This document shows, in pieces, positions 28,867 through 32,568 of a DNA stretch of 64,000 bases. The notes beneath the pieces are model-generated. The model had not been told where the DNA came from and made no database searches. It saw nothing but the letters and a program-made list of their open reading frames with translations. Each line of letters begins with the position of its first letter. The stretch's first letter is position 1. Both the position numbers and the translations under genes were made by a program. This DNA is from a bacterium (lineage in GTDB: Bacteria > Patescibacteriota > Saccharimonadia > UBA4664 > JBBRNT01): assembly GCA_043767845.1 (NCBI GenBank), contig JAYUFZ010000010.1, positions 7,182 to 71,181 on the forward strand, written 5' to 3'.

Positions 28867-29151
28867 TTACTCGATGCCGTACCTGCGGCTTAGTATGGTT
28901 GTAATAAAGGTTAATACTGCACAGAGAGTTGGTAGTAATAGGGATCCGACTTGATTGGTAACTTCGAACCCTTGTCTGTCGGAATGGATCTTAACTAGGT
29001 TGAGGCCAAACAGCTGAATATTCTTATCGACTACGTCGCTAGCGTTGCCGGTGGTGACGAGAGCGATTGCTCCAACTAGTGATATCAGTATCAGAGTACA
29101 TACGAAGGCCGTAGCGCCCCAGGCTAAGGCCGTAATAAATGGTCTTTTCAT
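28867..29151 (-). CDS. Small two-TM membrane protein (last gene of the peptide/ABC/protease operon)
   Basis: 94 aa; two hydrophobic helices flank a polar loop; ATGA overlap with the upstream gene. Confidence 0.45.
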   Translation of the reverse strand: MKRPFITALAWGATAFVCTLILISLVGAIALVTTGNASDVVDKNIQLFGLNLVKIHSDRQGFEVTNQVGSLLLPTLCAVLTFITTILSRRYGIE

Positions 29152-30044
29152 AATAGTTTCTCCTTTTGCCTAAGTATGCTCATTTGTCTAAGTCCCTTCA
29201 GGGCTACCTGGCCGTCAGCTGAGAAAGGAAGCAAACTGACTAATTGCAAACTGGCTATGCTAGCTATCGTCCAGATTGTGGCCTGGATAAAAGGCGAGGT
29301 GCTGCTGGCTAGCAGCAAGACGGTGATTGGCGCCATGCCCAGTAGCGGTCCAACCAGGGCGACGAACGCTCGTTGCTCGGCATCAGGCTGAACAATAGCT
29401 AAGCTCTTTAGGTTATAGCGGAGAACCTGCTTGTCCCGTGTGGGAGCGGCTGCCAGATAGTGGCCCAGCTCATGCAGGCTGGTACTTATTACGATTGCGA
29501 CAATCCCAGCTAGACCGATAAGAGCCAGGTTGGTGCCCAAGAGAAGCGCATAGGTTATACCAACTAGGCCTCCGCACGCCATCAGTGCCAGCTGGCTTGT
29601 GAGGCAGCCGGCGATTACTTGGCTGAAGGCTATGATTGGTTGAGCAGATAGTTCGCTTCTATGGGTATTAAGTAGGCTATATAAGGCTTTTCGGCTGCCG
29701 TGTGTGTTCGGGTGTGTCAACTTGATCAGGCCACGATTCTGCAGGCCGGCCAGCAGCTCAAAGTCTGCAAGCTGGTGGGTAATATCACTGATACTATTGT
29801 GGCCATCAAGCTGGGCTAGTAGTTCGTAAGCCTGATTATTGATGAGATGAGTCTGATGCAGAAGATTGTCAACTAGCATGTCCTCGTGTAGTTCTGCGTA
29901 TGCATCCCATCTAGGGATAAGTTTACGATAATTATGAAGTAAATAGTACAACACTATATATTCCTCAACCTGTAGCTTTCTAAAATTACCTGTAAAGTAG
30001 CTGATGTAATAATAAAGCCTGTAGTACTTGCCGTGGCTAACCAA
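29148..30044 (-). CDS. Fusion protein: PqqD-like RiPP-recognition-element domain + site-2-protease-like (M50) membrane metalloprotease
   Basis: N-terminal INNQAYELLAQLDGHNSISDITHQLADFELLAGLQNRGLIK (PqqD-like); TM HExxH VISTSLHELGHYLAA and LLPFSADGQV (LDG-like); start may be the internal Met. Confidence 0.55.
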   Translation of the reverse strand: MVSHGKYYRLYYYISYFTGNFRKLQVEEYIVLYYLLHNYRKLIPRWDAYAELHEDMLVDNLLHQTHLINNQAYELLAQLDGHNSISDITHQLADFELLAGLQNRGLIKLTHPNTHGSRKALYSLLNTHRSELSAQPIIAFSQVIAGCLTSQLALMACGGLVGITYALLLGTNLALIGLAGIVAIVISTSLHELGHYLAAAPTRDKQVLRYNLKSLAIVQPDAEQRAFVALVGPLLGMAPITVLLLASSTSPFIQATIWTIASIASLQLVSLLPFSADGQVALKGLRQMSILRQKEKLL

Positions 30045-31435
30045 AGCCCCAGTCCAAGCACAGACAGTTGCATTGACTCAATAATCATTAGGCCGCTGAC
30101 TAAAAGTAGGCTATGCACTAGGCTCAAGTCGTGGGCACTTCCTTGCTGCGAGAAGGCTGTTCCAAGCAATAGCGAAAAGCAGACTGCTGGTAAAACACCA
30201 ACTAATATAGCTAAAAAGCTAGTTACTGTAAGAGGTAGGCCAGTAATCATAAAACAAACAGCCCAAAGAGTAGCACTTATGACCAGGCCTAAGCTTATGG
30301 ATGTTAAGTATTGTCCAATCACAATTCGCCATATGGCCAGAGGACGTACATAAGCGAGGTAGCTCACCTGGCTGAGCTGGCGACGCATCTTTGCGGGAAT
30401 AAATACTACAGCTAGTGGTATGAGTAGGGAGCAGAGTTGGGCGAAGAGGGCGGTTAGCAGTGGCTGCTGTAGTAATCTCACCACAACTGCGGTACTTAGC
30501 GGAAGGAGTGAAAAGAGAATAATGAGGTAGAGGCCTTCCTTGTGGCGGAACCAACTGATGAAGGTGATGGCAACGGTCGACTGGATTTGTGTCAATCCTG
30601 GCAAGAGTCTCGGTTTATATATCCTGAGGCTTTCAGGGGTCTGATCAGTACTCTGGCTTATCAACAAAATAAAACAAAATAAGAATAAACTCGTTGTAGT
30701 TCTGACTACATTTAATAATAAGCTATTCGAATCGCCAAGTGAACCAAAAACAGAATTTAACAAAACATTATGATAGGTAGAGCTATGCTTTGTAATCGAG
30801 CTCACAATCAAGACCAGGCCTTCACCGAGAAAGCCAACGTAGGCTAGCTGTCGGGTGAAGTACCGAAATATAGCCTGCTTTTGGAAGAGTTTTGATAGTA
30901 TCTTGTCGATAATGGTAGCTGTAGCTAAACCGAGCTGCGAGGCGTTCATGACTAGTAGTAAGCCGTATAACCACCAGCCAAATATCCCTAAGCCAAGCCG
31001 ACTCCCGTTGGCTGTAGCCAGAGCTGCCCATAACGGGCCGATAAGTACCAAGCCAAGTAGGTAAGAGCACGCCAGCAGAGGTAGTGAGGTTCCGATTAAC
31101 CAGGCGCGTTTTTCGATCGGCAGGTGTTTCAGTGACGCCCATTGGTCGGTGTGTTTGGTGAGCAAATACAACCCCCAGGCAAGGCTCAAGACCAGAAAAG
31201 CTAGCAGGTGACTAGCCCTCTGCAAGTTCGCCACCGAAGAGTCGTAGAGCACCATACCCAGCTGCGCACCTAAGTTCTGAGCAGTATTTACTTCCCACTG
31301 CCAAAGTAAGCCGAGGATGAGTAGGCAGCCGGCCGGTAGAAGCGGCCAGCGTCTAATGAGGTTTAAGCTGCCTCTTATTGCTTGTTTGAGACTAACTTGG
31401 CTAATCAGCCAAGAAGTCTTTAATGTCTGATTCAT
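29954..31435 (-). CDS. ABC transporter permease (ABC-2-like, about 12 TM helices)
   Basis: 493 aa, polytopic; overlaps the ATPase gene. Confidence 0.6.
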   Translation of the reverse strand: MNQTLKTSWLISQVSLKQAIRGSLNLIRRWPLLPAGCLLILGLLWQWEVNTAQNLGAQLGMVLYDSSVANLQRASHLLAFLVLSLAWGLYLLTKHTDQWASLKHLPIEKRAWLIGTSLPLLACSYLLGLVLIGPLWAALATANGSRLGLGIFGWWLYGLLLVMNASQLGLATATIIDKILSKLFQKQAIFRYFTRQLAYVGFLGEGLVLIVSSITKHSSTYHNVLLNSVFGSLGDSNSLLLNVVRTTTSLFLFCFILLISQSTDQTPESLRIYKPRLLPGLTQIQSTVAITFISWFRHKEGLYLIILFSLLPLSTAVVVRLLQQPLLTALFAQLCSLLIPLAVVFIPAKMRRQLSQVSYLAYVRPLAIWRIVIGQYLTSISLGLVISATLWAVCFMITGLPLTVTSFLAILVGVLPAVCFSLLLGTAFSQQGSAHDLSLVHSLLLVSGLMIIESMQLSVLGLGLWLATASTTGFIITSATLQVILESYRLRNI

Positions 31436-32171
31436 GATTGCGGTTTTGAGTTAGTTTTTGGTAGGCGGCATCGAGAGTATCGGCCTCTGCACTTGCAAGG
31501 ACTTTAGATAGTGGGCCATAGGCGAAGGTTGTGGTGCGTAAGATGAGAATGTCATCGGCAATGTGCTCGGCAAAGGCTAGTTGGTGGGTGGCCAGCACGA
31601 TGGTGAAACCTTTATCGCGCAGTTGGCCGAGCAGACTGCGGATAAGGATAGTCATGTCTGGATCAAGGCCATTGGTCGGCTCGTCGATAATCAGAAGGCG
31701 AGCATCAGATATAAGAGCGGCTGCAATCTGTAGTTTTTTGAGCATGCCGTGCGAGAACCCAGCAGAGAGGCGGTCTGCAGACTCTTGGAGGCCCATTAGA
31801 TTTAGGATATCGTCAATTCTTTGTACGGCTCGCGCCGGTTCAATCCGGTAAAGGCTGGCAGTAAAGGCCAAGTACTCTCGAGCGGTAAGCGAGCCTATTA
31901 CATCACTTTCATCGGGCACAACCGTAACCTGCTGCTTAACCTTAAAGGCGTTAGTACGTGGGTTTAAGCCTGCCACCGAGATGTCACCTTTATCCGGCCA
32001 TACCAGACCCAACATACAACGCAGGAGGGTGGTCTTGCCGGAACCGTTCGGTCCGACAATAGCCAACAACCGGCCGCTTTCAAGCGAAATGGAAATATCC
32101 TCGAGTGCCCTGACAGCACCAAAAGATTTACTAATATGCGAGATACGGACGGCCGGCTGCTGGTTTTTCAT
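31401..32171 (-). CDS. ABC transporter ATP-binding protein (divergent signature motif LSAGFSHGMLKK)
   Basis: Walker A GPNGSGKTTLL, Walker B LLIIDEPTNGLD, H-loop ATHQ. Confidence 0.85.
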   Translation of the reverse strand: MKNQQPAVRISHISKSFGAVRALEDISISLESGRLLAIVGPNGSGKTTLLRCMLGLVWPDKGDISVAGLNPRTNAFKVKQQVTVVPDESDVIGSLTAREYLAFTASLYRIEPARAVQRIDDILNLMGLQESADRLSAGFSHGMLKKLQIAAALISDARLLIIDEPTNGLDPDMTILIRSLLGQLRDKGFTIVLATHQLAFAEHIADDILILRTTTFAYGPLSKVLASAEADTLDAAYQKLTQNRNHESDIKDFLAD

Positions 32172-32177
32172 CTGCGT

Positions 32178-32375
32178 CTACTTAAACCGACAGGCAATCT
32201 TAACGAAGGTCCAGAAATACTGAGTCCATTCCAGGTTTCCACCGCGCATCATGCAGTAGAAAGCAGCACTGCCGGCCAGTATGAGGGCGGCCAAGGCTAA
32301 TACAAAAACTAAAACGGCAACATCGTAACGAGCAAGTTCCGAATCTTGGGCGTAGGCAATGACAGGATTTTCCAT
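32178..32375 (-). CDS. Small single-TM peptide (65 aa) heading the ABC/protease operon; possible substrate or accessory peptide
   Basis: SD AAAAGGA-5nt-ATG at 32375 (ORF track extends to 32483); MENPVIAYAQDSELARYD, then a TM helix, then an aromatic/cationic tail RGGNLEWTQYFWTFVKIACRFK; the stop lies 6 nt before the ATPase start. Confidence 0.45.
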   Translation of the reverse strand: MENPVIAYAQDSELARYDVAVLVFVLALAALILAGSAAFYCMMRGGNLEWTQYFWTFVKIACRFK

Positions 32376-32568
32376 AGTTCCTTTTGAAGTTTTAAAATGT
32401 ATGACACGATAGACACCCTCCTGCTTGGTGTCAGGCCAAGTTGAGACCGATAATAGGAAAAGAATGATTGTTGTGTCAAGCATCAGAAGTATAAGGTGGC
32501 TAGCGTAAGGTACTTATACCAGCTTTATCCTATGTGTTAGAAGGATCTACGCGGACAATCAATTAATC

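Follow-up and report, generated by a model that had tools for sequence, protein, structure and literature searches.

A conserved five-gene operon combining a precursor-like peptide, an ABC transporter and an RRE-site-2 protease fusion in Saccharimonadia-like bacteria and Bacillota

Background

What is made by an operon that unites a small peptide, an ATP-binding cassette (ABC) transporter and an intramembrane protease fused to a PqqD-like domain, with no modifying enzyme encoded nearby? The question is raised by a locus on contig JAYUFZ010000010.1 (assembly GCA_043767845.1), studied here within a stretch of 64,000 nucleotides (nt; contig positions 7,182 to 71,181, forward strand), which is termed the window and whose coordinates are used below. 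The ORF list of the window contains five co-directional open reading frames (ORFs) on the minus strand at 28867-32483; an earlier note on this DNA had described them as such, and the motifs quoted there are present. They form a real, conserved five-gene operon. Its central product joins a PqqD-like RRE (RiPP recognition element, RiPPs being peptides that are made by ribosomes and then modified post-translationally) to a site-2 protease (S2P) core of the M50 type; RRE domains are a class-independent handle for finding modified ribosomal peptides. With slightly more confidence than doubt, we propose that the operon provides for leader-guided intramembrane cleavage and ABC export of an otherwise unmodified, disulfide-looped peptide, most likely of an antagonistic, bacteriocin-like kind.

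Results and discussion

Organization of the operon

The following features were assigned to the operon.

32450-32479, minus strand: sigma-70-like promoter of the operon, TTGACA-18 nt-TATTAT, matching 11 of 12 consensus positions (a consensus match only)
32178-32375, minus strand: precursor-like peptide, 65 amino acids (aa); homologous peptides, leave-window-out hidden Markov model (HMM), Shine-Dalgarno sequence
31401-32171, minus strand: ABC ATPase of the DrrA/ABCA (ABC-2) group, 256 aa; PF00005 and conserved motifs
29954-31435, minus strand: polytopic membrane protein, presumed permease, 493 aa; position, hydrophobic segments, homologues
29148-29954, minus strand: RRE-S2P fusion protein, 268 aa, GTG start; profiles and structure comparison
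29709-29927, minus strand: PqqD-like RRE, residues 10-82 of the RRE-S2P protein
29151-29645, minus strand: M50 core, residues 104-268 of the RRE-S2P protein
29460-29474, minus strand: HELGH of the RRE-S2P protein
29211-29234, minus strand: LLPFSADG of the RRE-S2P protein
28867-29151, minus strand: protein with two transmembrane (TM) segments, 94 aa, loop of about 30 aa; hydrophobic segments, sub-threshold LlsX match

On a 5.6-kb Logan contig of identical sequence, independent gene calling gave products of 101, 256, 493, 268 and 94 aa. For the first gene, the 65-aa version proposed earlier (start at 32375) is favoured over that of 101 aa, because the promoter at 32479-32450 lies inside the longer ORF and because of the lengths of the homologous peptides; an AAAGGA Shine-Dalgarno sequence precedes its ATG. 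The protease had been taken to comprise 298 aa, but that ORF opens at the first TTG after a stop codon. Its most likely start is the GTG at 29954, judged from a GAGGA Shine-Dalgarno sequence about 8 nt upstream, the choice made by the gene callers, and the N-terminus of the resulting 268-aa protein, which lines up with the N-termini of all relatives. With this start, the permease and protease genes share a stop/start overlap of 1 nt (ATAGTG) and not the 91 nt given in the earlier note, whereas the other junctions are as stated there: a 6-nt gap between the peptide and ATPase genes, a 35-nt overlap of the ATPase and permease genes, and a 4-nt overlap (ATGA) which joins the gene of the 94-aa protein to the protease gene.

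When HMMs were constructed from 10-11 loci other than the window, each ranked the matching window ORF top among 1,144 six-frame ORFs, with E values of 1.4e-5 for the peptide, 5.6e-72 for the ATPase, 5.4e-6 for the permease, 1.6e-30 for the RRE-protease and a marginal 0.009 for the small protein. By this measure, the five-gene set is more than a chance assembly of ORFs.

The RRE-protease

An N-terminal PqqD/RRE fold and a membrane-embedded S2P core with the motifs HExxH...LPFxxDG, as the earlier note had read them from the sequence, were confirmed by sequence profiles and structure comparison; the N-domain does resemble RREs, and HELGH has the position known from S2Ps, where a hydrophobic helix ends (helix 143-168; hydrophobic stretch 138-164). 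A word-indexed homology search with the protein returned the query itself only, single-sequence phmmer against the PDB gave only spurious matches to designed armadillo repeats, and scans of genome contigs and metagenome contigs found only unrelated weak M50 fragments. Nothing was retrieved by tblastn of the Bacillota family member P0006 against phage genomes. An exhaustive HMMER search yielded 16 relatives of 209-311 aa with 24-32% identity, a set that leaves out one further match, a repetitive protein of 5,622 aa. H161, E162, H165, G202, P243 and D247 are invariant in the 16-sequence alignment and make up the pattern HExxH ... GP ... LPFxxDG. The PqqD model PF05402 matches 8 of the 16 members (best E value 5.9e-9) and TIGR03859 matches nine; six are recognized by PF02163, three by the lasso PqqD model and two, weakly, by the daptide intramembrane metalloprotease model.

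The family profile in turn retrieves more than 100 bona fide PF02163 proteins at E values of 1e-11 to 1e-3, and its matches among PDB sequences are the S2P of M. jannaschii (3b4r, 2.9e-15), PqqD (5sxy, 9e-6) and RseP (8e-5). A confident AlphaFold2 (AF2) model calculated on the family alignment (predicted local distance difference test score, pLDDT, 91.3; predicted template modelling score, pTM, 0.86) shows a beta-sheet and three helices and then four membrane helices, of which the HExxH helix is followed by a beta-hairpin. It contains the elements that define the M50 core fold, namely the HExxH helix, a re-entrant beta-hairpin and two further TM helices. RseP and SpoIVFB are structural neighbours; the top Foldseek match, TbiB1, is non-significant. 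Assignment of the window protein to PqqD and M50 needs both the family profile and the model, and the protein is a divergent M50 superfamily member that the current Pfam model does not take in.

A second M50 protein of 210 aa is encoded at 25108-25740 (plus strand), about 3.4 kb from the operon. It matches the C-terminal part of PF02163 (E value 2.4e-9), is the second-best match of the RRE-S2P HMM in the window (E value 7.3e-5), and presumably is a housekeeping site-2 protease.

Conservation and distribution of the five genes

All 13 homologous loci, that is, every relative whose locus could be reached, hold genes for a peptide of 64-86 aa, the ATPase, a permease of 429-501 aa, the RRE-S2P protein and a two-TM protein of 91-110 aa. 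Homologues without the peptide and ABC genes, whose consistent occurrence the earlier note had named as a refutation, were not met with among these 13 loci, and the co-occurrence persists across two gene orders and at 15-38% identity. The carriers are Bacillaceae chromosomes, plasmids of Bacillus, Paraclostridium and Clostridium perfringens, and Saccharimonadales metagenome-assembled genomes (MAGs). The gene order of the window is found, with near-identical sizes, in Metabacillus mangrovi (65/256/496/298/94 aa), Halobacillus sp. and a metagenomic Bacillota-type locus, and also on the megaplasmid of Bacillus sp. F19, on Paraclostridium bifermentans plasmids and on the cpb2 plasmid pJIR3844 of C. 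perfringens. In Bacillus carboniphilus the ATPase gene is located nearby on the opposite strand. Four loci of the candidate phyla radiation (CPR) type, one of them from a Candidatus Saccharimonadales MAG, have the order peptide, protease, ATPase, permease, small protein. By its gene order, leader motif and ATPase similarity (188 vs 129 bits) the window module is of the Bacillota type, which may reflect an ancestral order or horizontal transfer.

The plasmid-borne loci are L018 (NC_019257.1, 61843-66705), L019 (NZ_CP079740.1) and L020 (CP085711.1, 297409-301773). The P. bifermentans plasmids with the module have sizes of 45-50 kb, and on pJIR3844 the module is located about 2 kb from the beta2-toxin gene cpb2. 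In public annotation, the module genes appear as 'PqqD family protein' and hypotheticals.

The peptide and its accessory genes

In the window peptide, an acidic, polar N-terminal part of 18 aa precedes a hydrophobic helix formed by residues 19-43; a 21-residue spacer lies between Cys41 and Cys62, and the C-terminus reads RFK. This architecture is uniform in 12 loci, with a polar N-terminus of 18-32 aa that carries a net charge of 0 to -6, a single hydrophobic helix some 25 residues long, and two invariant Cys, the first at the helix end and the second 21-26 residues on, 1-3 residues from the C-terminus. The homologous peptides of the 11 other loci have 64-82 aa and keep both Cys; the C-termini read ...C(R/K), CRFK, CSQN, CIYP and GCEM. 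A Y-x-x-P-x-hydrophobic motif, represented in the window by NPVI, is common to the Bacillota-type leaders, and in these loci the protease starts with IPxW; where the leader is of the CPR type (SLIxTDQ), the RRE has another N-terminus. Binding of the co-encoded leader by the RRE protein is suggested by this co-variation of leader type and RRE N-terminus, and by the co-occurrence of the genes.

In four loci the operon is followed by a gene for a thioredoxin/DsbA-like protein which is membrane-anchored at its N-terminus and contains a CxxC motif (CPSC, CKDC, CIDC and CTYC), located at L015 8142-8750, L018 7096-7686, L019 7129-7701 and L020 7186-7800. Because of the anchor and the CxxC motif, these proteins probably are extracytoplasmic oxidases, matching the two invariant Cys of the peptide. 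The two clostridial loci also carry a DUF3267 zincin gene downstream of the module.

Genes resembling agrCBDA are located directly upstream of the module in two loci, and LytTR regulators flank it in three further ones; agr and LytTR neighbours are typical of secreted-peptide loci. Stand-alone LytTR proteins of 117 and 129 aa without a receiver domain (L012 10301-10654 and L014 8196-8585) adjoin the module in B. carboniphilus and M. mangrovi. They are reminiscent of the HdrRM/BrsRM LytTR systems which control streptococcal bacteriocins.

In CPR-type loci, a large gene of about 935 aa directly follows the module (L002 11148-13958, L004 11280-14087, the P0019 contig, and L006 3421-5124). It encodes a P-type cation ATPase in L002 and L004 and is cut by the contig end in the P0019 contig and in L006; its position may reflect synteny of close relatives or a functional link.

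The ABC transporter and the small membrane protein

The ATPase matches PF00005 (E value 3.8e-29), the drrA model TIGR01188 (1.9e-49; 168 bits, cutoff 312) and, below its cutoff, a lantibiotic-protection ABC model (5.7e-40), and its best solved relatives are the nucleotide-binding domains of ABCA3/4/1/7, TM0544 (1vpl) and Rv1218c. GPNGSGKTT (Walker A), IIDEP (Walker B with Glu) and ATH (H-loop) are present; the C-loop reads FSHGMLKKLQ, and Asp replaces the Gln of the Q-loop. The earlier note had called this signature degenerate, which was a misreading: in an alignment of the window and eight other loci (A12), SHG in place of SGG is invariant in all nine ATPases, as is the wider pattern SHG..KK.Q. 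The C-loop consensus of the nine loci is [LFY]SHG[MN]xKK[LV]Q. They also have in common the exchange of the Q-loop Gln for Asp (P-D), and their Walker A, Walker B-Glu, D-loop and H-loop are intact. Judged from the alignment, the module ATPases are a dedicated, distinct subfamily and not the product of a decayed gene.

The earlier label of an ABC-2 permease is only weakly backed, by the type of the ATPase and by weak matches of two among nine homologues (one to PF13346 at 5e-4, one to PF12698 at 2.4e-3); the window permease itself is without a Pfam hit. The 493-aa protein contains at least 8-10 hydrophobic segments and is presumed to be the permease partner of the ATPase, because its gene overlaps the ATPase gene in all loci of the window gene order. 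Homologues of 429-501 aa occupy the same operon position and are alignable at 15-19% identity; a word-indexed search with the permease profile returned the query itself only. A faint internal repeat (hhalign P 0.014), with the motif L-x-x-LP[VI]-x4-[WY]-x-IG[QK] in both halves (alignment A11), suggests that the protein might be a fused pair of six-helix ABC-2-like modules.

The 94-aa protein contains two hydrophobic segments and has a counterpart of 91-110 aa in every locus. It aligns over nearly its full length with the LlsX_fam model NF033904 (E value 0.002; 18.3 bits, cutoff 29), which also matches three of eight homologues, all below the cutoff (best 1.3e-4). A distant relationship to LlsX, a protein of no known function, is possible on this basis, and the 94-aa protein is a candidate accessory or immunity factor.

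Proposed function

In the sequence of events which we propose, the acidic N-terminal portion of the peptide, about 18 residues long, would serve as leader; the PqqD-like RRE in the cytoplasm would bind it, probably by taking it up as an extra beta-strand. Binding would bring the junction of leader and hydrophobic helix within reach of the zinc site in the fused M50/S2P core of four helices, formed by H161, E162, H165 and D247 near the cytoplasmic membrane face, where the leader would be cut off. What remains, a peptide of about 45 residues made up of the hydrophobic helix and a 21-26-residue loop at the C-terminus, would then be expelled from the membrane by the DrrA/ABCA-type transporter. Outside the cell the invariant Cys pair would close the loop as a disulfide, via the dedicated thioredoxin where one is present, with the LlsX-like two-TM protein acting as an accessory or immunity subunit. 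No tailoring enzyme would be involved. An antagonistic peptide is the likeliest product because of the quorum-sensing control and the plasmid carriage of the module.

Several observations weigh against this proposal. Taken alone, the window protease scores below the Pfam gathering threshold with PF02163 (E value 0.005, 16.5-16.7 bits; cutoff 27.2), reaches only 13 bits with the PqqD model TIGR03859 (E value 0.06-0.07; cutoff 46), and does not match PF05402. The permease gave no match to Pfam or NCBIfam models at E values up to 10, its family profile none to PDB sequences, and its single-sequence AF2 model (pLDDT 46) is unusable for a fold search. As to the peptide, the predicted cores have net charges of -4 to +4, those of Bacilli being anionic, which is atypical for membrane-active bacteriocins, and in the window the net-acidic N-terminus and basic C-tail contradict the positive-inside rule for an N-in orientation. 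Neither a thioredoxin nor a regulator is encoded beside the window module or the CPR-type loci. In the literature searched, no such peptide is described apart from the daptide paper considered below, and the product has no chemical precedent.

The same biochemistry could deliver a cell-cell signal (pheromone) in place of a toxin, by analogy with the enterococcal and streptococcal pheromones and short hydrophobic peptides (SHPs) that pass through Eep and PptAB. This is the main alternative, to which we give a small but appreciable chance, and it owes its place to the non-cationic cores in Bacilli: neutral or anionic cores are more fitting for a signal than for a toxin that acts on membranes. 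Several Bacillota loci have as neighbours LytTR regulators or a histidine kinase together with a LytTR response regulator, and the regulators on the P. bifermentans plasmid come without an agrBD pair. At the two loci with a complete upstream agr system, however, that system has an autoinducer of its own, which suggests that the module is an output of quorum sensing and does not supply its signal; moreover, neither the window nor the CPR-type loci have a co-conserved receptor or regulator, and the core, at about 45 aa and with a complete hydrophobic helix, is big for a pheromone that has to diffuse.

Two further models fit the data less well than export of a leader-cleaved antagonistic peptide. 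Were the operon an immunity or resistance module, its ABC transporter and protease would remove or degrade a membrane-active peptide that arrives from outside, and the 65-aa protein would take part as a structural component with one TM segment, not as the substrate. Self-protection is a task of ABC-2 systems such as LanFEG, the nearest ATPases to that of the module are of the DrrA and lantibiotic-protection types, and the small two-TM protein is like immunity proteins in size and topology. Such a module, however, would need no peptide gene which is strictly co-conserved and co-diverges with it in 13 of 13 loci; RRE domains are known to bind genetically linked precursor peptides; and the 65-aa protein is precursor-like in its acidic leader, its invariant Cys pair and the dedicated extracytoplasmic oxidoreductase of some loci. 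We therefore regard an immunity function as improbable. Hardly credible, finally, is a switch based on regulated intramembrane proteolysis, in which the S2P would cut a 65-aa tether to free a cytoplasmic fragment or relieve inhibition of the transporter, as with anti-sigma factors and S2Ps. The peptide does have one TM helix, and S2Ps classically cleave N-in/C-out single-pass substrates, but its cytoplasmic part of only about 18 residues has no recognizable regulatory domain and differs between Bacillota- and CPR-type loci. No sigma factor or DNA-binding partner is co-conserved across the loci, and the switch leaves the invariant extracytoplasmic Cys pair and the thioredoxin unexplained.

If the proposed cleavage and export of an antagonistic peptide are correct, the RRE logic of RiPP pathways would serve an otherwise unmodified, class-II-like peptide. 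It is conceivable, if less than probable, that the operons represent an undescribed class of ribosomal peptides whose sole maturation is RRE-guided intramembrane leader removal plus disulfide formation, occurring on plasmids (including pJIR3844) and chromosomes of Bacilli and Clostridia and kept in genome-reduced Saccharimonadia as a dedicated effector toward host or competitor cells. A new, easily searchable peptide family would then be defined by its acidic leader, a single hydrophobic helix and a Cys-x(20-25)-Cys loop at the C-terminus, and a function could be given to several loci now annotated as 'PqqD family protein' and hypotheticals, among them those on C. perfringens toxin plasmids and in Saccharimonadia-like bacteria, in whose small genomes each retained operon is informative. 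M. mangrovi, B. carboniphilus and Bacillus sp. F19 are cultivable carriers of the module.

Genomic surroundings

The window points to a Saccharimonadia-like chromosome and not to a mobile element, in view of its class A RNase P RNA, housekeeping genes (Mur ligases, MurT, ThrRS, ArgRS, PilB), Saccharimonadales MAG relatives, and a collinear pair of Bac_transf and GT4 genes. Bacillota are known to carry class B RNase P, so that the class A RNA speaks against an origin from Bacillota. The two tRNA-Pro genes (26641-26716 and 27081-27156) and rnpB (class A, 32605-33022) between which the earlier note had placed the operon were both recovered, but its view that the operon sits in an accessory stretch is unsupported: the GC content is even across the module region at 0.45-0.52, the same as in the flanks, and no mobility genes were seen. 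The lack of a radical-SAM or other modifying enzyme reported in that note also holds, no tailoring enzyme being encoded within about 8 kb of the module and no radical-SAM domain in the module or its flanks.

The Bac_transf sugar transferase and GT4 glycosyltransferase genes adjoin rnpB (33061-35696, plus strand). They are 38% and 47% identical to, and collinear with, a pair which flanks the module in a Candidatus Saccharimonadales MAG (L013 7560-10114), where the module itself differs from that of the window in gene order and orientation. On the other side, a convergent unit of three genes with overlapping starts and stops (27365-28856, plus strand) ends 11 nt from the last gene of the module and encodes a histidine phosphatase, a GNAT protein of the Acetyltransf_8 type (the AAC(6')-like gene of the earlier note) and an RNase H/RVT_3 protein. 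These genes were rejected as part of the module; they are on the opposite strand and absent from all homologous loci. A tmRNA gene was detected by Rfam at 48460-48848 (plus strand, 90.5 bits) and went unreported by ARAGORN.

Comparison with known systems

Attempts to assign the locus to other categories failed. Anti-phage defence was rejected, since PADLOC gave the ATPase generic P-loop matches only and left the remaining four proteins unmatched, and NELoc-3 of C. perfringens was rejected as it consists of different genes. No bacteriocin gene is listed for pJIR3844 in a survey of C. perfringens plasmids.

The epipeptide operon of Bacillus subtilis (yydFGHIJ/epeXEPAB) comprises genes for a peptide, the radical-SAM epimerase YydG/EpeE, the M50 protease YydH/EpeP and the ABC transporter YydIJ. 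The module shares with it the union of a small peptide, a membrane M50 protease and an ABC transporter in one operon, but the radical-SAM epimerase which epipeptides need is absent and the peptide families are unrelated, so this identity was rejected. We know of no description of YydH as an RRE-bearing protein. M50 proteases also mature epipeptides, and a review does not describe the peptide-maturing M50 proteases EpeP/YydH and TglG/TmoG as RRE fusions (PMC10885120).

Listeriolysin S (llsAGHX) has the same order of peptide, ABC ATPase, permease and small membrane protein, and the 94-aa protein weakly resembles LlsX; however, listeriolysin S requires a BCD-type cyclodehydratase complex and a CAAX protease, and the LlsX match stays below the cutoff. 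The B1/B2 proteins of lasso peptide pathways differ in being a soluble transglutaminase-like Cys protease acting with a cyclase, whereas the module has a membrane zinc protease and no cyclase. A further system for comparison is the pair Eep/PptAB: Eep, an RseP-type S2P, cuts short N-in/C-out hydrophobic peptides, and the ABC transporter PptAB exports the C-terminal fragment. S2P cleavage and ABC export of a peptide are common to both systems, but Eep and PptAB are products of unlinked housekeeping genes that act on signal peptides and SHPs, with neither an RRE nor a dedicated Cys-pair precursor.

The earlier note did not know the architecture from any described system, which overstates its novelty: an RRE-fused S2P is already known as MpaP/DapP, the proposed RRE-dependent leader peptidase of daptide pathways, whose precursors join an acidic leader to a core with many aliphatic residues and whose gene clusters include ABC transporters (Ren et al. 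2023; PMC10036551). RRE domains were the starting point from which daptides were discovered in that work. Full-text searches on RRE in combination with site-2 protease led to that paper only. Both systems have the RRE fused N-terminally to the intramembrane S2P, and they are alike in leader and core composition, in multi-component ABC transporters and in their occurrence in Bacillota. They differ in that DapB (DUF-RRE), the oxidoreductase/oxidative decarboxylase, the aminotransferase dependent on pyridoxal phosphate and the methyltransferase are absent from about 8 kb around the window module. No daptide tailoring genes were found in the 12 homologous loci either, except for an unlinked short-chain dehydrogenase/reductase (L016) and, in L012, a class-V aminotransferase whose gene lies some 0.4 kb upstream of that for the peptide. 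The module peptides end in K/R/N/P/M after Cys and not in the invariant Thr of daptides, lack the ELExMEAP motif, and are encoded by one precursor gene as against about 2-10 in daptide clusters; the window protein misses the daptide_HExxH model NF041824, which only 2 of the 16 relatives match (8e-4). With the defining enzymes and the C-terminal Thr absent, a daptide cluster was rejected. The RRE-S2P fusion as such is known from daptides, and a version without modifying enzymes was not found described. RRE-S2P fusions have so far been described from daptide pathways only; if the proposed function is correct, RRE leader recognition would extend to essentially unmodified peptides.

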